A stretch of DNA of 64,000 bases from Rhizodiscina lignyota (taxonomy: Eukaryota). A program made the position numbers and the translations under genes. The notes beneath the pieces were generated by a model. It did not search any database and was not told where the DNA came from. It saw only the letters and a list, made by a program, of their open reading frames with translations. The DNA lies in the NCBI GenBank assembly GCA_010015805.1, contig ML978142.1:62001-126000 (forward strand), written 5' to 3'. Each line of letters starts with the position of its first letter. Position 1 is the stretch's first letter. This document shows positions 1-53,300 of this stretch, piece after piece.

Positions 1-473
1 CTACCAGCCCAAGTCGTACTCGCACAATTAATATCCTCCCAAGTGTCGTCATCCAGACGTTCCACTCATGTCCCAAAGCCAAACCAAAATCAATCCCCTC
101 ATGATACTTGGCGATTCTGCCAGCCAATTCGTATCCAGTCGTCCCTATCCACGTGATCAAATCCAAACCAACAACGTCCATCCCTCACGAAGCACTAGTA
201 CCCTCGTTACCCTCCTCGATCGTTTCATCGTCGTCCTTTTCGATCCCCTCTTCGATCCTCGACATCGACGCTGCCGGTTCCGACCTGGAGCGTCCCGGTC
301 TAAACACCTCCCTGATGCCGAGTCCGACGTTGCCCTCTCTCAAGCGATCCAGGAAGTTGGTGCCACTCGAACTCGGCCCTCTACTCAAAATATAGATCCA
401 GTAATTCTCCCACAGCAAAACATCAACACCAAAGCAAGAAATCCAAATCGGGAAGAGCAAGTATATGCAAAAC

Positions 474-3400
474 TCACCCAGCCGGCCCTCCATGGCTCCT
501 GACCAACCGTCCGCCAGCACTGACTCTCTTCATCAACCGCGCCTCCCGATCCCTCATACTTCCACCGCCTGCATTCAACGACGAAATCACCCCCGGTCCC
601 GAGAGCTGCTGGGCGTTCGGCAGCGACCCCGGAAGCGCAGCGAGCGCGTCGCCACTGCCGTCCGCGGCACCGTCCATCCTCTGGCCGCTTAGGGCGCCGA
701 TGCCTCTCCGTCCACTGCGTTGTTCTGCCTTCTGATCGAGGTAGAAGCGCGCGCTTGTGCTGAGGGGAATCGGTGCCGGTTGAGTGGGAAGGTCTGCGCC
801 ATTGAGGAGGAGGAGTTCTGCGACGGGGAAGGGCTTGCGCATTGCTGGCGTTGGGGGCTGTGGCATGGGCATTTGGCTTGTGCCGGATGGGCTCCTGGCG
901 TGGCCGGGTGAGCTTGAGCCCGTTGGCGTGGCAGAGCCGGAGGGCGATGCTGGATCTGCGGCGGCGAGAGCGAGGAAGACGGAGTGTGTGTTGCGGGAGC
1001 GGTCGGCCGCGTTGGGGTTTGCGCGGAGGGCGAGGGCGTAGAGAACGTTCTGGATGTCGCTCTTCTTCACGGATGCGAGGAGCGTTTCCTCGGGTGTCGA
1101 GTAGTGGCTCAGGGTGCTGGAGATGGGCTGGACAAACGCGCGCTCCGAGTACTTCGCGGTAATGAACTTCAGCCGCTGCTCCCGTGTTGCAGTCGGCGGT
1201 GGCTTGGTTGTTTGATCGAGTTTGGCCTCCCAGATCATGTTGCTGACGCGGTTACCGATCGTGAGCAGAATTTCGACCACGTCTGGAGTGAAGGCCGTTG
1301 GATCGAGCGTGATGCTACGGACCTTGGAGATGTGCGTGCCGAGAGATCGGTGGATGCCACTGCATTCAATGCAGATGATGATGCCAAGGTTGATAGATAC
1401 CCAATCCACTTTGTCGGTTGCTCCGCAGTCGGCACAGAATGCGTTGCCAGCGTCTGCTTCGCGGATCTGTTTGAGGAGCTTTATTCCAGCCTCTGAAGAT
1501 ACTTCCGGCCTAATGTGGGGTCGGTCGCCGACCGTTGCGTGTCGAGATACGATCTTTGACGCATTTCCGGGTTTGTGATGGCTAGATAATGACGTACTCT
1601 TCCCCGTAAGGACTGAAGCAATGTCTTTTCGGGTCTGACCAGGCAATGAATCGGTGGATATGCGCTCAATCGCGCCCTTGCCCTCGACGGCGCTCTGCAA
1701 TGCGTTGTTGATTGAAGCAATCCAAGTTCTCATGTCCTCTTCAGACGTAGCCTGATACACACGTGTGAATGACGGTGTGATGACCTCGAAGCAAAATCGC
1801 CTCTCAGCATTTCGAGCTTCGCGGACGGACGCAACCCGCAGGTCGATTGGATCCATGTGCAGCTCCAGTTTCTGCTTCCAATTTTGGTATTCGGTTAATT
1901 TCCCTTGGTCAAGAACAATCCAGAACCTGCGCATATCAATTAGGGAGAACAAAAGCGTTTTACTGAGAACAACTTACTTGTGCCATGCTTGCTTGTTCAA
2001 TCCCTTGGGATCAACGTGGCTTCCAGGCCGGCTCAAAGCCCACAGCAAGCCTTCTTTTCGAAGAGGCATGCCATCGCCAGCTGAAAGGAGAGAGTGGTCC
2101 TTCTCCTCTAGATCACGGATGCCTTTGAACTTATCGGCTGGACTACTGCCCAGAACACCACTTGCTTGGCCAGCGTTTGGAGAAACGCCAACGCGTCCCG
2201 CTGGTACAGGAACGGAAGCACTGGATCCATTCGCCCTTTCGCCAGAGTTGATCTTGAAGATGGGAACAGAAGCTGATGCTTTTGGCGTCGCCTCGACCTC
2301 TGGGGCATTCCTTACTTGCGCAGGAGTTGAAGGCTGTACCGCTGGTGCTGCCTGTCCCGTTGGCTCAACGTAGGGCTTGTTGCTCTGCTCAATGGCTCTC
2401 CGCTTCTCTTCTCTTTCCGTGCGCTGAAGCTGGAACTCCTTGTCTGCTTCCTTGACTTCGGAGGATAAAGCATCGAGTTGTGGAATCATGGCCTCAATCC
2501 TCTTTGCGGTGCTAAGATAACCCCGAGCTTGCGTATCGGCATATTTAGTCAAGTGTGAGAGAACTTCTTGGTCCTTGCGGCCTCCGTGCAGATCCTGCAT
2601 GAATGACGAATAGTCGAAGCGCTTGAGCTCAAAGTTGCGACGCTTTGTTTGGTACTTCGTGTCCGTCTCAGCGCGCTTCTTCTCCTTCATTGAGTCGTGC
2701 CGTTGGCCGAGATATCGTGATACGTATGCATAGTACTCGCGACTTTCATCGTCAAAGTCCTTCTTCTTAGATTCGGCCTGTTTGATGTCAAGGTTGTAAA
2801 GCTTAGAAATGGGCTCGATGATCATCTTCTGGATATTGGTGGTGTTCTGCCTCTCGTATGCAAGAATCTCTTTGGCGATTTTGTCGAAATAATGCTCGAT
2901 CGCAGGCTGCACCGCATTGGCGCTTGACGACGAGACCTCCTTCAGCGCTAGCATGAGCGACAGCACAGCGTCATTGGAACTCGACTGGGCCTCCTGGGCC
3001 GCTTCTGCTGCTCTGAGGACCTTCTTCCAGCGCAGACGCATGCTTCCAGTTCGCTGCTCCATCGACTTCATCGTAGCGCGGAATAGAGGCCCATCTTCGG
3101 TGAGCGTTACGTCCTCGCCTGGACGCTGGCAATTGATGTCAAGCTTTACGGTCGGTGCGTGAGCCGCAGTCGAGCCGGTGAGCGTAGGAACGAGACCAAG
3201 GCCATATTCCGGAACGAACTCGGCTGTTGGCGACTGTGGGGCGTTCGATGCAATCTCTGTTGCGTCCGAATCACTGATTCGAGATGATATGGAGTGACCA
3301 GATGGAAGCCGCAACCTCGGAGGTACATCGACATCAAGACGTGGAGATGCCTTTGGACTGATAAAGACCCTGTTCGTGTTCGCAACCCAGAACGAAAAGC

Positions 3401-37548: not shown

Positions 37549-40500
37549 TCAAGCGTCCTCTTGGCCAAAAAACTCCTCGAATCTCGGGTCTCCACCCAAC
37601 CCACACTCCTCCAGCACATCAAAACACCGCACTAACAGCACCGGAAAACGACTCGTCCAATACCTCAAATATCCGCCACTCAAACTGCCCACCTTTGCCT
37701 TCACATCCTCCGGCATATCCGCATAGTGATTCTTCTTGTTCCTCAGCGCGCGCAACAAGTCTACCATCTTGTGGCCTTGGTACTTGCGCTGCTTGCCTAG
37801 GGTGTCGGTGAACTTGCGGTCTAGGATGGCGAGGAAGTCGCCGTTGGGGATTACTTCGAAGGCTTTGGATTCGAGAATTTGCAGATGTTCGGAAGGGGGG
37901 TCGCGCGGCTCGCGTTCGAAGTGGTCGGAGACTTCGCAAAGGAAGGTGAGGCGTTTGGAGGCCGACCAGAAGAACGGGTGGTTCTTGACTTGCAGGGCGG
38001 AAGGTCTGTGTTCAATGTTAGATCAGTAATGATGAAAATTTGTGAAGATCGCTCACCTATCCCTCGGATCATACTCCAACATCCAACTAATAAGATGCTT
38101 CGGCTCTTCGCTCTCAGGCCCCAGAGCATCCAGTTTGCTAAAGTCGCTCTTCCCGGATTTGATATTGACTTCGCGCATCACTGTCCACTGCTCGGTGTTC
38201 CCACAATCGAAAGGATGCGCGCCATTCGTCAGGACGAAGAAGAAGACACATCCAAGGCTGAAGATGTCGCAAGCGCGCTTCACCGGAGCAGTAGGGTCAG
38301 CACCGCCGGAAAGACTACTCGAGTTCTCTTGGGTTTCGCTATGTTGGGAGCTGCTGGTGTTGCCATTCTGCTGCTTGCCGACCAGCTCCGGCGCTTTCCA
38401 GCCTGTGGTGCCAACATTTCCGATGGTGCCAGCGAGTGTGCTCTGTTGATCTGGGAGGGTTTTGCAGAGGCCAAAGTCGGAGATGACGAGTCGCGGGCCG
38501 CCGGTTTCGTGCTTCTTGGGAATGGCGATGAGAATGTTTTGCGGTTTGATGTCTCTGTGGACGAGCCTGAGCTTGTGCAAGTGAGCCAATCCATTTGCTA
38601 TCTGGTGAAGTGTGGCCGGGGCGTTTGAATTGATTTGATTGACAATGTTCACTCGATCATCGCTCAAGCCGTCGATGTTTCCACCTTCTCTGTACAAATC
38701 GAAGAGGCTAGCCTGGCACTTCTCGACAGCAATGTAGATGAAGTTGTTGTCTCGTTGATGATCGTAGTATCGAATCACGTTGGGATGATCGTCGCTCTGT
38801 TCCAGCAGCGCCACTTCCTGTGTCGCAAGTTCGATGTATTGTGGAAGAACACGTTTGACGGCGACGTCGCGATTGCCCTTTCGGCCTTCAAACACAGTCG
38901 TACCACCGCTGCCATAGCCCAAGATACGGTCCGTAAAGATCTCGAGGTTACTGATCACGATGGTGCCAGAAACATCGCTGGCTCCGCCGCTTGCACTGAT
39001 TTCATCTGGTTGCATTGGATGGCTCTGGTCAATCTGCTTCCCAATCTGCTCCGTGAGGCCGCCCTCGTCGTTACTGCCATTGTCTGTCTTCTTCTTCCGT
39101 TTCTTTCCGCCTCTTTGCCCGCGATGTGCCTTCTTTTTCTTTGGAGTGTCGGCGCCGGTGCCATCTGTTTGTGCGGATTCAAGGCCCTCTATATCACCAT
39201 CAGCAGGCGTTGAAGGCTCAGTGATGGGTGAAGACTCGGATTCTTCTCCATTCGCACCCTGCTCTGGGACGTCGAATCTGACGGCTTTGCGTTCTGGCTC
39301 ATCGCTTGTTGTGATCGGAGGCGGAGCTTCGACTTGCTTGACATCTGGAGCCGCCTTGACAATCTCTGACTCGAGAGGGATAATGACGCTGCTTCCGTTG
39401 ATGATGGTCTTCAACAGCTTTCCTTTGGCAATGAAGCCTAAGCATGCCAACGCAGTTACAGCACCAATCATCCAGGTACTGAACCACAATGACCCCGACT
39501 TGCTAGGAGCAGCAACTGGTACTTTCTCATTAGTGTCATTGGGCGGGTCGACTACGATTGGCTCTTTGATTGGCACCGGGCCTTGAAGGGTCAACAGATT
39601 CCGCTGGCGATGATCGTCTTCGGCATCAGCGAGGGCATGTTTCCCAACCAATTCCCATCTACGCGGCGTATACGGGAAGCGGAATCCCTGCTCGTTCCAA
39701 TTGAGCATGTTTACATAGCACTGAGCGTCTTTCGCGGAGCTCGTGACGAATGGGTACTTCTGCTCTGACATGGCATACCAGCCACCTGATTCGGTGCAAT
39801 TGACAAAGATGTGAGGGTTCTGGCTGGTCTCTTCGAAGCGCAGTGACGGTTGAGGCAGTATGACAAGCGATGCTTCGTTCGGGTCGGCCTCGACATGGCG
39901 CGCGACATCAAAGACGCGGACGACTGGCGCTGAGAGTTTGTTCTGGTTTCGAGGCCGCAGGTCATCGAGGGAGTCGACATCTTTGGCATCAACTGACAAG
40001 AAATGACCATCATGCCGAGACAGGATATAGTTATTGTCGAGCGTGGATTGGTATTGCGCCCCGAGGTCTCGGTCTCGCCCGTTCGCCGCCCACTCGGAAT
40101 AGCGGATGGTGCATATCGGCTCCAGCGTCGATTGGTTGCGAATGACGACGGTGTAGTCGGTTCGGGCAATCATGAAATGACTTCTCGATTCGCATTCCTC
40201 ATTGACACTCTCAAAATCAGCCACTGGAGGACAACTATTCTCCGCTGCATACCCAAACATTGCAGCATCTGATGAAACTTCCTTGATCAGTCTTCCCGTG
40301 GCCGCGTTCAGAGTGAAGAGTGTGGCATCCTTCTTGGCAGTATAGATGACAAACGGCTCCTCTGAACTTGCGTATGTGGACATGTCCGTTAATGTCTTCA
40401 CGGTGGCCGCAATCTTCTGCAGGCCATTGTCTTTGTAGATGTAGAGGGCACCGTCTTCGGTCGGTTCGACGATCCAGAGCCACTCGTCCGCTTCAATGGT

Positions 40501-41055
40501 GGCATCGTGTCCCGAGTAATTCTGACGGTGGTATTGGGTGTTGACGATGGGTCGTGACGGCTCTCCGGCCGGAGGAAAGGTCCACTTCTGTTTCCTGCCC
40601 GTCTTCCTGTCAACTGCATGGATCCTTCCATCAATAGTCGCCAACAGGACCAGATCCTCGACCTCCCAGTCTCGCAAGGACCGCGCAACGGCTGCTTCGG
40701 AACTGCGGCGACCGGTGAGGCCGGAGCCGGCAGCAGTGCTTGCGGAGAGTGGTGCTCGCACAGCAGGGTCATGCTCTGCTGGAGCCAAGGTCGCAATGGC
40801 GCGCTGATTGTTTCCAGATGGTAGTGATATGGATGTGTGGAGGGGGTTGGCGTCGGTGTCGCGGAACTTGCCATGGGGCACTTCGAGACGTGACGACGGC
40901 TTGGAGGTGTGCTTTATGGTGCGAGGCCGCAACACCGAGTTCTCCGGCGGAGAGCTCTGGTATCGGCTGCCATCTTGCGGTTGCTGCTGCTGAGCTACCG
41001 CAAGCGCTCCAAGGACGAAGATGATCCAGCGGAGGCCCGATTGGCCTGCTGGCAT
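37549..41055 (-). CDS. IRE1: Ser/Thr kinase/endoribonuclease Ire1
   Basis: Signal peptide, luminal domain, TM helix, kinase (LGYGSGGTTVF, VAVKR, HRDIKPQN, ISDFGLCK, GWKAPE) and KEN RNase (DLLRALRNKKNHY). Intron 38056-38006. Confidence 0.97.
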
Positions 41056-43771
41056 GTCGGAGGCCTTATGTTGAAGTCGGTTGGTTCGTCATAGGCCCCA
41101 CACTGCGCTGGCGGAGGGGCATGAATGAATGATGGAGCACGCCGGGCGACAGAGGACGGTGGTGCTCGTAACGATGGAAGAGGGAGTGGAATGTTCTGGG
41201 AGGAGGCTTGTGTGCGGTGGTGTTATTCGCACCAAGACGGCGGAGCTGACGTGCGGGCCTGGCCTTCCTGCGGCGAAACACGAGGGAGCCAACCAGCGGC
41301 CGATCCCGAAACAGGCCAATGCTGTGCTGCGCTGACGGCCAGGGGCTGCAGAAGGGACGACTCTGGCGTTTGTCGTTGTTTCTCGCTGTTTGTTTGATAT
41401 CGCTAGCTAGCAGAAGAAAGGCAGCAGGGACAGAGACGAGCTTTATAGACCTCCTTCTCTACGCCGCAGATTCTGCCCGCGCACTCTGCCCCTTGCGTGC
41501 CACCCACGCCTCACGTAACCGGCGCAGTTTCAGACGATCCGTCCCGCACTCACAGATCTGCGCCCACGGCGTGCGACTTCGAGCCTCTCACGCTCCTTGT
41601 CGCCGTCGGAGAGGCACAGAGGGCTCCTTAGGCGCTTGAGAGGTCAATATTGGCCGCCAAAGGGAGCACGCGACCGCCGAAGACAAAAGGCTCCGACTTG
41701 AGCTCCGACATGTGAGCCTATCGCCACACCCCTCGGTGGGGGCAATTCAAGGTTGCGACTCATGTCTGTGAGCAGGTGTGAGACGAAAGTTCAGCTCCAC
41801 GCGTATGCCGCTGTATGCGGAGATGCCATGTGGGACGGCGTGTCAAGTGCGACTGCAAGGCTGTCCAGTGGCACCTCAGCTAATTCTCCCAAGTAGAATC
41901 AATCTGGACGAGCATCGGAGTGAAGTGTATGACTGACGGGACTATCTAGCGACGCTATTAAGGGTATCGCATGCCAGCTCGCTATTTGTCCTGCTTGCTG
42001 CCGTCCCAGGAATGTCTTTCTGAGATGGACAGGAAGCTCAGTAATCATCCTGTGGCTCAAGTAAAATCCCCAGGCGTGCAAACCCTCCCTGTCATTCATC
42101 TCTATGTTGTCAAATCACGATTCGATTGATCCGGAGCTAAGATATCTTTTATATCTCAATGGGGTTAATCCAGAACCCGATTTTCTTCCAATCATCAGTC
42201 AATCGGCATTGCTTCGACAGTGGATAGACGTTGCAGGTCATCGGGTCCTCTTGACTTCGTTGGAAACACATTTTGCTGCATTTCACACAAACCTGGAGCT
42301 CGATATTTGCACGTCCGCGAGCAATTTGATGATGACATCGCGGTCCTGTCGGTGGCGGAATGTCCGGCGAATGACTAGCTCATTCGAAACTTTTCATCAA
42401 CGCTGGATGCAGAAAGTTGATATTATAGTGGTACTCTTACAAAGCCATGTCAGCGCCGTCCGTAGAAAATAAGTTTTTTGATATCTGCATCTTGCGTTCG
42501 CATCGCTGAACTCTCGCTGGAGTTGGGTGTGTTGCTTGAACGAAGATCCAAATCGAACCTTCGAAAACGAGATCGTGATTTTCCACTTCGCGCAGTGAAC
42601 CATTGCTGTTCAGTGCTAATGTCGAGTCAGAGTCGTGGACTTGCTTGGTAATAGAGCTTACGCTCCATTATGCGTAAGGCCTGCTTCTGTTGCTTGCACT
42701 GACTAACTCCAAATATTTACATATCAATGCCGTGGAAGTGCAGAGGACGAAGGTCGTTGAGTTTGAACTACCGAGCTGTGAGAGCATCGAAAACACTTGC
42801 TCACCAAGAGCGGAGGTTCTGTTCAAATATAAGCGGAGGCTCTTTATATCGTACGACTTTGGTGCGACTGTAGTCTGGTGCGGCATTGTGGCGGTCGGCT
42901 GTGTTAGCAGACAGCTGGATTGCATTATTGGCGGTGCTGGCATGTGTCGACTGGAATAGACAGCCAAGTATGAGTAAGAGAATGGATCAAAGAATGAGTG
43001 TGGTTTTATTGAGCGTTTTACGAGTTACATGATTCTTTTTATGTTTGAGATGTTAACGAGAAATTTGAGAAATGAGTGTAGAATAGTTGGAACGATCCTT
43101 CCGAGTACCACCCACCCCTTCAACGATTACTTCACCCTCCCTCAATTCGATAAATAAAACAGAAGCTAGCATTCTCACTGCACTATATTGTGACAGTGTG
43201 GCTGGAGCATCAGCCCTGGCTGGCTAGACGGCCTGTCCAGCGGTTGCAGAATCATCGGCCTGAGTGGCAGAATCCTGATAGCATAAATTCGTCAGAAGGC
43301 GACTTGTGGTTGTCAAATGCGAAACATTATCGCGTTGTTGGCGCTCGTGTCGTTCAAGTACAGAGAGGTAACTTCTGGGAGCACCGGGGAAGTCCATCAT
43401 AACACTACGCAGGGATGATGGCTGATGTCCGACAATAGACTTAACAGGTGCTCCCAGAAGCTGCCTCTCTATCCAAGAGCGATCCACGACTCATCAGGGC
43501 ACCGAAGGCCCGCCTCGCCACTGCCCCGAGGTCCCGCTGCATCGCTGCATACTATTCGTAAATGCAAAACCCCGTCGGCAACGGAAAGGCATTGATTGTA
43601 CACTAACCCATCATCATGCTGGAGTACATGCCTTGGCTTTGCCGAGTGAGCTTGTAAATGCGAATAGTGGACAGCAGTGTAGCGGGGCCTTGGGTCAGTC
43701 GCAAGGAGGGCCCTTGGCGCGCTCATGAATATGGACCTAGACAAAGAACCAAGTGAGTCAAATCGTAGCAT

Positions 43772-44331
43772 TCATGGCAAGACAGAGGGAGGGGAATTGA
43801 ACATTACCACTTCAAGAAGTTCGTGAGTCAAGCCAAGATGCGCCATGACCTGCCCGAGGGCAGAGTCGCCGCCATCCTTATGAACGGCACCCATAATTGC
43901 CTCGAGTGTGGTGGCCATTGTTCTGCTCGAAACGGTTGTTGTTCCAGGATTGAGATTGATGCAACGGTCAAGTCTATGAACGAAACCAACCGCGGCAAGA
44001 TTGCTGTTTGACAGGACATCTAGCCGTATAGTATCCCACTGGCCTGTGAAACTGTTAGTAAATCATGGTAACGTCCATATACAAGACAAAGCGAGTAATC
44101 ACTCTTCTGCAGACCAATATCAAGCCATTTTCGACAGAGGTAGCTCGCGGCAACCGCATCACCGTACACGGCCAAGCGGTCGTTCCGGTGGATGGCTTGA
44201 AAAGCATCTCGAACAACAATCCCTCCCTGGAACGTATGAAGCGCCGTCGCACAAAGCAGCTTGTCGCTGAATTGGTACGCAATTGCAATTTCGCAAGCAG
44301 CGATTTTGGTCACGATTGTGCCTGCCGCCAT
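43772..44331 (-). CDS. Stand-alone single RNase III-domain protein (~166 aa, no dsRBD)
   Basis: Exon 1 44331-44103 (IAYQFSDKLLCATALH, NDRLAVYGDAV), intron 44102-44044 with TACTAAC branch point, exon 2 44043-43772 (VLSNSNLAAVG...MATTLEAIMGAVHKDGG). Both RNase III signature blocks are recognisable. Confidence 0.85.
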
Positions 44332-44665
44332 GTTTTCGAGAATCCGAGTTGGAGCTGAAAGCTGTTATGGATAGTGCGAATATTGGAGAGAACAGATATA
44401 ATAGAGATCAGTTGAAGAGGTGAAGAAGAAGTTGCTGCTCTAATGGCAGAGGGCAATATTTAAATAGAAGGCACCTGCGTTGAACGCAGGGTTGGGCAGG
44501 CGGCTGGAGGAATGTCACACCATCTGCATATTTCCCAGAAGTGTTCGCTCCGCCTTGTTACGTCGTGCAAAAATTTGGTCAAAAAACAGAGAGCTCAGCC
44601 GAAGAGCTGCAGATAGACGAACAATGGAGTAAGAAGGATGAATGAAGTGCTGAAAAGGCTCCCCC

Positions 44666-44673
44666 AAAAAAAA
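44666..44673 (-). terminator. RNA polymerase III oligo-T terminator
   Basis: T8 run on the minus strand, 8 nt after the tRNA discriminator base. Confidence 0.8.
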
Positions 44674-44681
44674 GGAAGGTG

Positions 44682-44824
44682 AGGTCCTGCCCGGATTCGA
44701 ACCGGGCTGATGTATATGTTAGCGCATGTAATATAATTTTTAGGGTTGGCATGGCTTACGTTGCCGGAAGATCCCAACTCGCATGAATCAGAATCCGGAG
44801 TGATGACCGCTACACTACAGAACC
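44682..44824 (-). tRNA. tRNA-Gln(CTG) with two intervening sequences (canonical 37/38 intron 44787-44770; spliceosomal-type intron 44759-44707)
   Basis: GGTTCTG/CAGGACC acceptor stem, D arm GTGTAGCGGTCATCAC, anticodon stem CCGGA/TCCGG with loop TTCTGAT, variable loop CAAC, T arm CCCGG-TTCGAAT-CCGGG. 72 nt after removing 18 and 53 nt. Confidence 0.92.
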
Positions 44825-45672
44825 AAAAACGTTGATTTCAAAAACGGATTAATAATATATAGTTTGATTGCATACCTCGCCGAAACGCTTTCCGTCCCAT
44901 CTCACCGCCCCAGCACCTCTACACCTTTCAGATCCACAGCACATATGAACAACTCCGAATGAACTCTCCAGAGCCTAACTGCCATCACAACAGCATCATT
45001 GCCGCTTTAATCGTTCTAGAATTGAGTTGCCAGGTGTCGTCTAGCTGCTTTTCCCTCCAGTTCGAGCCTAGGCCCAGGGTAAGACCTAAAGTTTTACCCA
45101 GTTTTGGACCATACATCTCAATTCTCATGTCGCATAATCGGGCAAGCAAACTATGATTCGGGACCCTTTTTGGTGAAACCACATGTCTTTCCAGGTAGCA
45201 CTAGTTAAATCTTGCCGCTCGTAACGAGCTCTCTACAACACCTACTTGAACGGAGTTGGAATTCGGAAGAGACCGAAACGAACAGTGTTCAGTATCTGTG
45301 AGAATGTCTTTGACTATCTTGATTATTTTACATTATGTGTTTTTGGGTATTCGTAATATAGGAAAAAGAGGAATGAAATGAGTTCTGCTGGGTTTTATTT
45401 CTAATTTATCACATTGTTTTCTTTTTATAAGTTTCGGCGCGGTGCTCAGAGTATATCGTCGAGAATGCAAACCCTCTTCCTTCCAATCCGCCGACCAACT
45501 TTCCATCTGTTACCGATATCACCGTACCACTGAGGACCGGCCATTGAGCTTCGCGGCCTCTTCATGACGAAGGCGGTACCTATCCAGGTGCATGAATTCC
45601 CGCGATGCGTATGCCGGAGAGCCACTTGTGAGATGGAAGGTGGCTTGAGTGGACCTAGAACCCGACCCTTCT

Positions 45673-47193: not shown

Positions 47194-47847
47194 TCATGAT
47201 GTGCTCTCATGCCCTCCTGCATCGGAGACCTTCTCCCATTCACTATCCGTCATGCCACTCATCTCCATCTCACTTCCTCTCTTCCTCATGCCTGACTCAT
47301 CTCCAGAGCTGCCTTCGACATGTACACCAGACGCCTCGCTTGCAGCACTTGAAGCCGGCCGTGGTAGCAAGTGACCGCTGCTGCCCATCGAAGGTGACTC
47401 TGCGGTATCGGAGGATCGGTCGTGCACAAGTGCTGGATCGAGCAAAGACGCCTTTGACTCCACCTCTTCTCCTTCAGTTTCCGTGTCTACGCCGTCTTCA
47501 TCCTCTGCATCGTCATCCCTCTCACTGATGGCGCGATCTGGTTCCTCTCGTCTCGCTTCATTTATGTCTTTCCCGGTATCCGCAGGCCGTGGCGTTTCCC
47601 CTTCCCTCTCATTTCGCCTTTTTAATTCCTCTGCTGCTCTCAACTCTGCAACAAACCAGTTGATAGCCCACCAAAGCGCACCACAAAGAATGCCGAGTAC
47701 AACAAAGTGCACACTGTAGGTCGCAATCAGCAAGGCGAAGAGGACGGCTTGAAGGGCCGCAAAGGACGCGTTCGTCGCGAGAAGTAGCGGTGGGGTCGGG
47801 CCAGGCGTAAAGACGGAATCCCACAGGGATTTCATGAAATCCGCCAT
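47194..47847 (-). CDS. PKR1: ER V-ATPase assembly factor Pkr1
   Basis: LWDSVFTPGPTPPLLLATNASF...TYSVHFVVL...LWWAINWF: two TM helices followed by an acidic tail. Confidence 0.9.
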   Translation of the reverse strand: MADFMKSLWDSVFTPGPTPPLLLATNASFAALQAVLFALLIATYSVHFVVLGILCGALWWAINWFVAELRAAEELKRRNEREGETPRPADTGKDINEARREEPDRAISERDDDAEDEDGVDTETEGEEVESKASLLDPALVHDRSSDTAESPSMGSSGHLLPRPASSAASEASGVHVEGSSGDESGMRKRGSEMEMSGMTDSEWEKVSDAGGHESTS

Positions 47848-48510
47848 GGTCGACGGTTTGTTTGGTAGCCTTGTCCGAGGAGGACAGCGTTTGCGAAGTG
47901 ACTTGTGCGTGTATGTGTATGCGTTGTCTAGATACGAAACAGTAAAAGGTCCGGCGTATATGAATAAGAAGCTAGGACTAGATCCAGAGTCCTAGGCAGC
48001 TCGCAGTTCAGGCTGTGTCGCGTTCTCTCGTGCGCCTGTCGCGTGGGCGCTGTGCCACGAACGGAGGTCCCCTCGTGCTTCGGTGACTGGGCGAGGCAGC
48101 CCTAACAAACGCGCGAGAGAAGAGGCGCTGATAGACGGTGAAGATATTTCGAGAGACTGGGAGCAAATGACAAGGTCAAGGGCATTCCAACCCGTTTGTC
48201 GCGGGTTGGGATGGTTATGCCAGATCAGATGGACATGGAACGTACCTTGCCAGCACGTCTGCAGGCCGATAACGCCGATATCTTACACGTGACTTGGTTT
48301 TTCTTTCCCTGAGTTTTGTGTATAAGTTTCCTAATAAGGTATAGTTTGTGTATTCAGGCACTTCGCGTCAAGAAACTCCCCGACCTGCTCTACAATGACA
48401 GTATCTTTCCAGCTTTCCAGGCTTGTAGAATTCATCAACTCAAGCTCCCACTGCTGACTTTCGGGAAAACTGCTTTACACTTCAAAGGGAATACTCGGAG
48501 GCATCAACTC

Positions 48511-50311: not shown

Positions 50312-53300
50312 TCAATAAGCACCCGCCCTTGGGCTCCATCGCGGTTGCGGTGACAGTGCGGGCTTGCGGTATCCACTCAATACAGGCATCTGTGGCTCCA
50401 AACCCAAGCTCCCCAGTCTTGCTCCCTCTTTATTCAATGCCCACAATGTTAGTGCGACGGTATTCATGCCGTCGTAGTTCAGAATACCCTCCGGCACCGG
50501 ATACGTTGTTTGTGGTCCCAGATTCGATACTGTCAATGCCTGTCAGCAATTCTCAATCTCGGAGAGGTTGTCCTGCGGTGATCCGTACCGTATTTGCCAA
50601 ACTGGTACCCATTTACGTAGAACTGGACTCTGTACACTCCCGAACCAGTTGCATTCACGTCTGGCTCCGGGAATATGAAGCTCATTGGCACATCATATCC
50701 ACGTGGGACATGCAGCTCAAAGCTCGTAGTATAGAAACCCACGCCTGCTTTGCCAATTCCGGCTTTCATCGGGCTTGCGCTCTTCCATTTTCCACTTGGA
50801 GGACTGGGCTGATGGTATCCTTGCCGCTCCGCATACATCGCGCCCTCGTTGCGTGGCCCTCGTACCAAGTCATGATATTGCTCGCCGCCGAGATTGCCTG
50901 TCATTTTCCACGTCACGCCGTTCTGCTCGTGGCCGGACAGCTGGTAGTTCAGAAGTCCGCGAGGTGCTTTGATTGCGTCCGTGCCGGGAGCTTCTTCGTC
51001 CTGTCCAGTGTGGTCGATCAGCACAGTTACAATATGCTTCTTTCCCTTTTGTAGCTTTGAAGGGAAATCGAAAGTCTGGTTCCAGGTCGAATTGGCGCCG
51101 CTGCCGATCCAAGACCCGAGGAATGTGCTGTCGAGCCATGCAGAGTGTGCAAAGCCAACGCCACCGGAAACGTTGAGGTAAAGATTGGATTCCGCTCCAT
51201 TGGCAGTGAAGTGACCGCGGTAGATAAGGGAGCCTGTGTGGTATCCGTAGTCACTTGCGTAAAGGGACGTAGGGGTCAATAGCGGAAGAATTGGATTTGT
51301 CGTTGTCTTGTGATTGCAAACAGTCCACTTCGAATCATCGTAATTGGGCTGAACCTCGGGTAGTGAGTCTAGATACTTCCACGACAATTTGGACAGGTCT
51401 GGAACAGACACTGATGGATGCTTGAACTGAATGGAACCGGTTAACCGGCCAGACTTTGCCTCACAATCAACGTCTTCTCCGTTGAACGAGAGGGACTGGA
51501 CGGCACCAGTCGGTTCGTAAACAAGTTCAAAATTCGTAGTTGTGTTCAGATCGCCCGTCACCCTGAGTTCTTGGCCACTAAGAGCTGCTGTACGTAACAG
51601 ATATCCTCCCTTGATGATTACAGATGACTTTGACGGTGACGAATAGTTGCCAATCGGCGCCTCGGCAGGAAGCTCCATTATCCAGTGATTGTAAGCATCG
51701 TTCCGCCAAAGCAGATGGACCTCCAAACTGTTGCCGAAGTCGACAACTTTACGATTCGGAGTCACCCTCCATTGAACCGTCCAGCCGGAAGACGTTTGTC
51801 GCAGCTTCACGCCAGAGCCCTCTGAGACCTTTGGCTTTCCAGCCTTGCTCTCGAATGCAAACTCATGAAGCTCGCCGGCGCCTCCGTACAACAAGAGAAT
51901 GCGCTTGCCGGAGTTCCACTTCTGCCAGGAATAGATTTCTCCAGTTGAATAGACCAGGTTGAGCCCGCCGACATCGTAGTCCGTGACATGAATTTTCGAG
52001 TCCCGGCCGAGCAACGTCAAGTCGCCGCCCAGCTGTGGTATCGCAACCTTGCCTCTGCTTGTCTTGACGATCAGCTTGTAATTCGTGTTGTTCAAGGAAG
52101 TGAAGTCGGCATGGCGAATAACATAAAAGTTGGTCTTGTAATTTGTTCCCCACAACGGAGTTGTCGCTATGGCACTTGTCGACACATACGATCCGTTCGA
52201 CACGTTTCCAGGGTTCGTCGTGAAATAAGCCGGAGAGACTTTAAAGAACTCTGCTTCCAACTTCTCTTCACTATACTTCTCTCGCCAGACATGACGATCC
52301 TCTGTAATCGCCGCTCCGTAATCGTATGAGGAGTCCCCTCCTTGATATCCCAGGTTTCCCCAATTGGTGCCTCCGAACGTCATGTAGATATTCAACAGTT
52401 TGACGCCGAAGCTATAGTTATTTTTGTACATGACGCGCACTGCTTCCATGTTGACGAGAGCGTTACACATGTCTTGGTCGACGCCTCCCCACCCAGTGCC
52501 AGTGCCCCCTTGAAACTCTGGAATCGCGAACGGCGTTGAAGGACTCTGTTCTTCGTGCAAAGTCTGCCAGCCAACAGGGAATCGAATCGTTGGCCAAACT
52601 TCCGGATGTGCGCAGTCGTATCGTAATGGATAGGCATCGATGCCATACAAGTCGACCGATCCAAGGCCCGTGCCGGGCGCAAAGCTCCCTTGAACGAGGT
52701 TGTCGTTGTCAATGAATGGCACAATGATTCCGGCATCTCGATATAGCTGCTCCACAACAGCCATATACTCTTTCTGAGGCTGCTCAGGAAAGTCGGTCTG
52801 GTTCACGCTTGGCCAATCGGCATACTCGTTCTCGGGCTGCAGCATCACGACCGGCCCTCCATTGGTGATCTGTGCTTTCGCGATAATCTTGCTGATAGTG
52901 GAGACGTACTTCCTGGTTGCGTCGATGAAGCCCGGAGCATCCGATCTAAGTGTGCTGTTGATTCTCAATGTCCAACCCGGAAATCCGCCGGCCGCAGTCT
53001 CCGCGTTGATGTAGGGCCCTGGGCGTGCGATCAAATAGATACCAGCTTCCGAGGCAGCCGCGAAGAAAGGTTCATAGTCCCAGATTCCATCGGTGACCAC
53101 ATGTCCCCGGTTTCCCTCGATAAGACCCCAATAGACGTAGAATGACACGCCATTGAAGCCCATAGCCTTGATTTTCTGGAAAACATCAAGCCACAGGCCA
53201 GGAACCGGGATTCTCCATGGGTGAAATTCGCCGGAATAGAAGAAGACACGTTCACCGCGGACGAACAGAGAATGTTCATCCCAAGTTACCTGCTCAAGTT

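Follow-up and report, generated by a model that had tools for sequence, protein, structure and literature searches.

A tRNA-Gln(CUG) gene of Rhizodiscina lignyota with a spliceosomal-type GT-AG insert beside its canonical tRNA intron

Introduction

Can a tRNA gene be host to a spliceosomal intron, next to an intron of the kind that the tRNA splicing endonuclease removes? The question is raised by positions 44682-44824 on the minus strand of a 64,000-nt stretch of Rhizodiscina lignyota DNA (the whole of which was analysed, hereafter the window), where we find a tRNA-Gln(CUG) gene of 143 nt with two inserts, in letters that on re-reading proved identical to those of the initial annotation. Splicing is usually coupled to Pol II, and tRNA genes are multi-copy and redundant. 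The U3, U1, U2, and U5 genes are Pol II genes in most fungi, and spliceosomal introns reportedly occur in the rRNA genes of ascomycetes (Bhattacharya et al. 2000, as cited in PMC5855946 and PMC6652019).

Textbooks and recent reviews keep the kinds of intron apart, placing the spliceosomal ones in Pol II transcripts and in a few snRNA, U3, and rRNA genes, and leaving the tRNA introns to a protein endonuclease (available parts of PMC12530127 and PMC5855946). The former, a paper of 2025, speaks in its available part of spliceosomal introns that belong to mRNAs and to other Pol II transcripts, and presents the three intron types as unrelated. On record are spliceosomal introns in the U6 (Pol III), U1, U2, and U5 snRNA genes and in rRNA genes (PMC5855946, in the part available, where the determinants of intron insertion into non-coding RNAs are called unclear), and in U3 (PMC5832005, likewise in part, whose abstract calls U3 a polymerase III transcript). 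The mRNA-type introns of U6 are found in fission yeast and other fungi (Tani and Ohshima 1989, 1991; Canzler et al. 2016, as cited in the available parts of PMC5855946 and PMC5832005). Our literature search, which left most subscription journals and supplements outside its reach, so that absence from print is unproven, returned no report of spliceosomal introns in tRNA genes; this agrees with the initial annotation, which was aware of none, and the phrases that did match were of the form "non-spliceosomal splicing of tRNA". In the available part of a review on tRNA introns (PMC4090602), no word begins with "spliceosom".

Anatomy of the Gene

The Rfam tRNA model (RF00005) matches exactly positions 44682-44824 on the minus strand, with 35 bits against a gathering score of 29, insert included, and this is the sole gathering-level Rfam match within the 64 kb of the window. 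In the alignment, the anticodon loop is extended by an insertion of 20 nt and the variable region by a single long one. When positions 44707-44759 are removed in silico, ARAGORN returns a tRNA-Gln(ctg) of 73 bases by its own count, with an 18-nt intron at 37/38, and the excised product folds into a clean cloverleaf whose anticodon stem has five Watson-Crick pairs and whose variable loop reads CAAC. The parts of the gene and its surroundings are as follows.

44849..44861, minus strand: TATA-like run, -37 to -25 from the mature 5' end, read from the sequence
44788..44824, minus strand: exon 1, 37 nt, tRNA positions 1-37 (acceptor 5' half, D arm, anticodon stem 5' half, loop with anticodon CTG), from the Rfam alignment and ARAGORN after excision
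44807..44817, minus strand: A box, tRNA positions 8-18, read from the sequence
44770..44787, minus strand: canonical tRNA intron, 18 nt, after position 37, placed at 37/38 by ARAGORN
44760..44769, minus strand: exon 2, 10 nt, position 38, anticodon stem 3' half, variable loop CAAC, from script and ARAGORN
44707..44759, minus strand: spliceosomal-type (GT-AG) intron, 53 nt, in the variable loop, from sequence, excision, and signal scan
44682..44706, minus strand: exon 3, 25 nt, T arm, acceptor 3' half, and discriminator T, from the Rfam alignment and ARAGORN
44693..44703, minus strand: B box GGTTCGAATCC, an exact match to GGTTCRANTCC
44666..44673, minus strand: T8 run, Pol III terminator-like, 9 nt after the gene, read from the sequence

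We regard this anatomy, i.e., a tRNA-Gln(CUG) gene with an 18-nt tRNA intron and a 53-nt insert of predicted spliceosomal type, as solid. The A and B boxes were assigned by the box consensus, and the B box is the sole exact match to GGTTCRANTCC in the window. The initial annotation had described all stems, both boxes, and the T8 terminator as intact, and each of these is borne out, by Rfam, by ARAGORN after excision, by the exact B box, and by the T8 run. The cloverleaf with its score, the A and B boxes, and the downstream T run together place the locus among eukaryotic nuclear tRNA-Gln(CUG) genes. By eye, the first 25 nt of the gene are those of six tRNA-Gln loci from the metagenome scan described below, and AT-rich TATA-like runs also precede most of the uninterrupted fungal tRNA-Gln loci of that scan, as well as its locus L010.

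The letters themselves recur in the Logan contigs, an independent assembly of the sole public run with the locus, in which positions 44620-44890 show no difference at a word depth of 148; this run may be the window's own source, and no RNA run with the locus was listed among public runs. When the same positions were compared with that run at 80% likeness, 1 of its 15,746 records matched, namely, the locus itself, which says nothing on paralogues, and short tRNA matches can escape such a comparison. Within the window, no further tRNA was found: its B-box-like matches number 5, where shuffles average 8.4, and the B box of the gene itself is the one exact match. A match to RT-2 RNA on the plus strand, with 15.9 bits against 40, was treated as chance.

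The uncut gene is poorly served by tRNA finders, as had been predicted. ARAGORN in default mode reports no tRNA in the 64 kb window and, in intron mode, returns either an Asn(att) tRNA with a 58-nt intron or a Gln(ctg) tRNA with a 60-nt intron; for the second locus, L010, both ARAGORN and Rfam (E up to 0.01) report nothing. Such genes are thus missed or misread. The two forced fits could be taken at their word, in which case the locus would have one long intron at 37/38, or the insert would be retained as a very long variable arm. We consider this extremely improbable. The fits contradict each other, and both call for a broken anticodon stem and for an extended variable loop that lacks structure; in the Gln fit, only 3 of the 5 stem pairs are good, and the loose variable loop has 16 nt. 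Taken by itself, the insert has a weak fold (-6.1 kcal/mol), and retention is impossible in L010, whose inserts split the acceptor stem and the D loop. Both fits were rejected for the broken anticodon stem and for their mutual contradiction.

The Two Inserts Are of Different Kinds by Sequence

The 18-nt intron has the sequence features of a substrate of the tRNA splicing endonuclease (TSEN). It had been described as lying at the canonical 37/38 site and as able to pair with the anticodon, and both points hold: ARAGORN places it there, and the minimum-energy fold contains an 11-bp helix between the anticodon region and the intron. The windows around its two junctions pair at -15.4 kcal/mol, against a mean of -10.2 in shuffles, of which 20 in 300 were as good. 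Position and pairing with the anticodon region are both those of a TSEN-type intron.

Could the 53-nt insert be a second intron of the same type, cut by the tRNA splicing endonuclease at a bulge-helix-bulge (BHB), as are the ectopic introns of archaea, Cyanidioschyzon, and nucleomorphs? Such introns do exist, and a variable-loop tRNA intron of Thermofilum pendens appears, by its title, in the reference list of PMC3978253, of which part was available. The two junctions of the 53-nt insert do not pair, and therefore no BHB-type tRNA intron is supported: lying in the variable loop, the insert has junction windows that pair at -6.7 kcal/mol, against a shuffle mean of -7.0, with 150 of the 300 shuffles as good, and the minimum-energy fold has no helix joining the sequences beside the two junctions. 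A full set of spliceosomal signals would moreover have to be a coincidence, at about 2e-5. We consider a second tRNA-type intron most improbable.

The signals in question are these.

44754..44759, minus strand: 5' splice site GTAAGC, fits GTRNGY at the insert's first base
44718..44723, minus strand: branch site GCTAAC, with branch A 12 nt before the 3' end; contains CTAAC, fits CTRAY 6-35 nt before the 3' end
44707..44709, minus strand: 3' splice site CAG, fits YAG at the insert's last base

When the insert was shuffled 300,000 times, donor, branch, and acceptor never occurred jointly; among the 127,895 segments of 53 nt in the window, both strands included, 3 have all of them (about 2 in 100,000). 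The GC content of the insert is 0.36, compared with 0.53 for the window. For length, we drew up a heuristic comparison set of candidate mRNA introns in the window, i.e., GT..AG segments with donor and branch that separate two open frames, each of 50 codons or more, which become one when the segment is removed; the short ones (n = 7) measure 48, 51, 51, 51, 58, 63, and 69 nt, with donors such as GTGAGC, GTAAGT, GTATGT, and GTAGGC and branch distances of 12-20 nt. The 53 nt of the insert fall within this range of 48-69 nt, and its type of donor and its branch distance also agree with the set. The GTAAGC donor, the CAG acceptor, and the likeness in length to the candidate mRNA introns of the window were correctly noted at the outset. 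The GCTAAC branch site is there as well, but the distance of 13 nt first given for it counts the A itself, and the branch A lies 12 nt before the 3' end. It is also correct that the junctions cannot slide, because exon 2 ends in C where the insert ends in G, and the insert starts with G where exon 3 starts with C. By every sequence criterion tested, the 53-nt insert is a spliceosomal-type intron in the sense orientation.

Two minor likenesses between the inserts may be mentioned: GTTGG in the 18-nt intron (44770-44787) and CCAAC in the 53-nt insert (44707-44759) could pair, and CATGCG occurs in both. These are probably due to chance.

A Second Gene with Inserts in Another Fungus

Metagenome contigs were scanned with the 21-nt T-arm and acceptor end, which yielded 20 loci. 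ARAGORN identifies 11 of these as tRNA-Gln; L002 and L005 can be added as Gln(TTG), judging from the Rfam score and by eye; L003, L018, and L020 are other tRNAs; and L006, L014, and L015 contain no tRNA. All 13 uninterrupted tRNA-Gln loci have an intron of 9-22 nt at the canonical site, a count that includes identical loci (L001 and L004; L017 and L019) and nearly identical ones (L002 and L005). The remaining locus, 1 of 14 of Gln type, carries spliceosomal-type inserts.

JAABUQ010000324.1, contig range 70775-71595, about 400-592, minus strand: tRNA-Gln(CUG) gene (L010), read by eye

This gene, from another fungus, holds two GT..AG inserts at positions other than that of the window gene: one of 48 nt after position 6 (GTGAGT..CCTAAC..CAG) and one of 57 nt in the D loop (GTGAGT..CCTGAT..TAG), with the branch-like motifs CCTAAC and CCTGAT 10 or 11 nt before the insert end. 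It also has a 17-nt canonical intron at 37/38. When both inserts are excised, ARAGORN returns a tRNA-Gln(ctg), and when one alone is excised it makes no such call. Three inserts are thus found in two loci, at three positions (variable loop, after position 6, D loop), all in sense orientation and all with canonical splice signals, in genes whose transcription by Pol III is deduced from their promoter boxes. With the same kind of predicted insert twice more in an unrelated locus, the phenomenon is recurrent.

The window's own insert position (GGCAACGT..AGCCCGG..), scanned for in the metagenome contigs, gave no match; a scan of prokaryote genomes gave 2 matches, both bacterial and irrelevant, and one of viruses gave none. 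When the three inserts were compared with each other, with the 64 kb window, and with the 20 metagenome loci, only chance matches of at most 11 nt appeared. Apart from this, ARAGORN places a tRNA-Leu(TAA)-like gene in L003 (Ga0315298_1015804), at about 302-425 in match orientation; its CCA end is encoded, 37 nt are inserted beside the anticodon, and it is not fungal-looking.

Working Genes or Disabled Copies?

Whether such genes work is a separate matter from what their inserts are. That removal of the insert restores the tRNA exactly, as was first claimed, is true by ARAGORN after excision, but it is weaker as an argument than it seems, since it holds for any clean insertion; the informative point is, on the sequence, the exact coincidence of the insert borders with GT and AG. 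For this reason, and because tRNA genes are redundant, the main rival explanation is a disabled copy. A real spliceosomal-type intron would have been transposed into the gene, the Pol III transcripts would stay unspliced or be degraded, and other, uninterrupted tRNA-Gln(CUG) genes would supply the cell, leaving a young pseudogene as a by-product of intron mobility. We hold this to be a serious possibility, though on the unlikely side. A recent insertion would look the same, and the integrity of the exons would then speak of a young insertion only; inserts are rare, being present in only 1 of the 14 Gln-type metagenome loci.

The exons bear on this directly. The predicted 72-nt product of the window gene is 66/72 identical to the uninterrupted L001, L004, L012, and L016, and its variable loop CAAC resembles the TAAC read in 12 of the 13 uninterrupted tRNA-Gln loci. 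Compared with L011, also uninterrupted, it differs at 10 positions, which are confined to position 26, the anticodon stem, and position 44; the four anticodon-stem pairs that changed, read by eye, stay Watson-Crick. That all changed stem pairs are compensated argues against a disabled copy, as do the intact promoter elements and terminator. In L010, the exons joined in silico are identical to those of L011 at 72 of 72 positions, in spite of two separate inserts; two separate insertions without any exon change point to constraint on the exons.

Transcription gives arguments on both sides. The initial annotation had observed that no T run in the insert would stop Pol III and had counted this against a dead pseudogene. 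The observation stands, as the longest T run in the 53-nt insert is 2 and none of the three inserts, including the two of L010, has a longer one or any Pol III stop signal. The argument is weak, however: runs of T4 or longer occur in 4 of the 7 short intron candidates of the window, so that their absence from three inserts has a probability of about (3/7)^3 = 0.08, with a comparison set that is itself heuristic. On the other side, T5 runs lie directly upstream of the window gene, at 44825-44829 (-5 to -1, abutting the mature 5' end) and at 44840-44844 (-20 to -16), both on the minus strand, and might hamper Pol III if initiation occurs further upstream; by eye, none of the 13 uninterrupted tRNA-Gln loci has such runs just upstream. 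L010 also counts against a working gene in one respect, because its first intron cuts the 5' exon down to 6 nt plus leader, with the A box shifted 48 nt downstream. This arrangement is awkward, as judged from the sequence, for the standard placement of the Pol III start site and for the spliceosome, and a first exon of 6 nt seems hard to splice. Finally, we infer that forward splicing should be able to remove an intron from the RNA context into which reverse splicing has brought it, which speaks against disabled copies.

A different host transcript could reconcile a tRNA gene with ordinary splicing. The tRNA would then lie within a same-strand Pol II transcript, for instance, if the RNase III-like gene that starts about 320 nt downstream had an extended 5' leader, and the 53 nt would be spliced as an ordinary intron, the tRNA being released or not. 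Recruitment of the spliceosome is normally tied to Pol II, and two ORFs do lie downstream on the same strand (43775-44364, minus), although their RNase III-like match is weak (PF14622, E 1.5e-4, under the Pfam cut-off). We nevertheless find it improbable, since a TATA-like run and a T8 terminator belong to the tRNA gene itself, L010 presents the phenomenon in other surroundings, and the place of the insert inside the tRNA body is left unexplained.

A Possible Route of Maturation and Origin

The reading that we prefer, with a probability of roughly 0.5, is that of a working fungal nuclear tRNA-Gln(CUG) gene whose variable loop has acquired a genuine U2-type GT-AG intron, beside the usual 18-nt intron. 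Pol III would transcribe all 143 nt of the gene, nothing in the insert being such as to stop the polymerase. The spliceosome would remove the 53 nt, with U1 on GUAAGC, branch recognition on GCUAAC, and CAG as acceptor, while the tRNA body would keep the two splice sites near each other. TSEN and tRNA ligase would remove the 18-nt intron, probably after the spliceosome has acted, because TSEN measures from the folded mature domain. The proposed need for two splicing machineries stands at about even odds.

The intron would probably have originated by reverse splicing, with the pre-tRNA as its target or else the sense strand that is displaced when an R-loop forms at a heavily transcribed gene; such an origin would explain the exact borders and the sense orientation. 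Reverse splicing and the R-loop DNA route are discussed in PMC11146597, in the part available. More broadly, it seems a little short of an even chance that, in some fungi, the Pol III transcripts of working tRNA genes need the spliceosome, here together with TSEN and tRNA ligase, and that introns colonize the variable loop, the acceptor stem, and the D loop of such genes, probably by reverse splicing at genes prone to R-loops.

Comparison with Known Systems

The tRNA gene as a host class for spliceosomal-type introns appears to be new, and so does their pairing with a TSEN intron, the first of its kind. The closest parallels share some of the traits. The rRNA introns of ascomycetes are reportedly of spliceosomal type too and said to lie at many positions of a gene not transcribed by Pol II; in contrast, their host is a Pol I rRNA, whereas here it is a Pol III tRNA. 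The introns of U6 have in common with those described here a short structured Pol III RNA gene, ordinary GT..branch..AG signals, positions that vary among lineages, and reverse splicing as the favored origin (available parts of PMC5855946 and PMC5832005). However, U6 lies within the spliceosome's active site, which explains how introns entered it, whereas a tRNA is not, and U6 has no second, protein-spliced intron. tRNA genes are absent from the intron hosts listed in the available parts of these U6 and snRNA reviews. The introns of fungal U3 snoRNA and U1, U2, and U5 snRNA likewise lie in small structured non-coding RNA genes (PMC5832005, PMC5855946, same parts), but none of these RNAs needs a second splicing system.

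On the side of the tRNA introns, the ectopic ones of archaea, Cyanidioschyzon merolae, and nucleomorphs resemble the present case in that a gene may have more than one intron, at non-canonical positions that include the variable loop, and escape standard finders (PMC3978253 and PMC4090602, in the parts available). As described there, they are defined by a BHB and cut by the tRNA endonuclease, whereas the 53-nt insert has no BHB fold and has spliceosomal signals. Introner-like elements and intron transposition (PMC11146597, PMC11282704) offer a parallel for the gain itself: short non-coding elements create introns with exact borders, and reverse splicing into RNA or R-loop DNA is proposed, but the known hosts are protein-coding genes. 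No second copy of any of the three inserts was found within the 64 kb window or the 20 metagenome loci, and no target-site duplication was seen at the inserts by eye.

A tRNA gene with both kinds of intron would allow one to ask, on a natural substrate, if the spliceosome acts on a Pol III transcript with a tRNA fold, and in what way. It would also represent a clean, datable case in which a gene of 72 nt, exactly known in its ancestral state, gained an intron, and bear on the reverse-splicing and R-loop models of intron origin. If the reading holds, fungal tRNA annotation misses a class of genes, and since such genes are invisible to tRNA finders, the tRNA gene sets of fungi are under-counted. 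Should the copies be dead, they would still record intron transposition into tRNA genes, in sense orientation and with exact borders.

Neighboring Genes

The surroundings of the locus contain ordinary fungal genes. Positions 47197-47991 (minus strand) encode a Pkr1 ER protein, and positions 50536-53298 (minus strand) encode a four-domain GH35 beta-galactosidase (Pfam, including domains 2 and 3). A weak Pkinase_fungal match (Pfam) is also present in the window. These Pfam matches place the window among fungi and, taken with its short introns, suggest a filamentous ascomycete. On the same strand, the ORFs at 43775-44364 could form a small RNase III-domain gene with a leader overlapping the tRNA. 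Positions 38056-41088 (minus strand) hold an open frame of 1011 aa with a protein kinase domain and, next to it, a 51-nt intron candidate at 38006-38056. In the atlas, the clusters nearest to this frame are IRE1-type kinase/endoribonucleases, which carry out a third type of splicing (HAC1/XBP1); the presence of an IRE1-like frame 3.6 kb from the tRNA is probably a coincidence.
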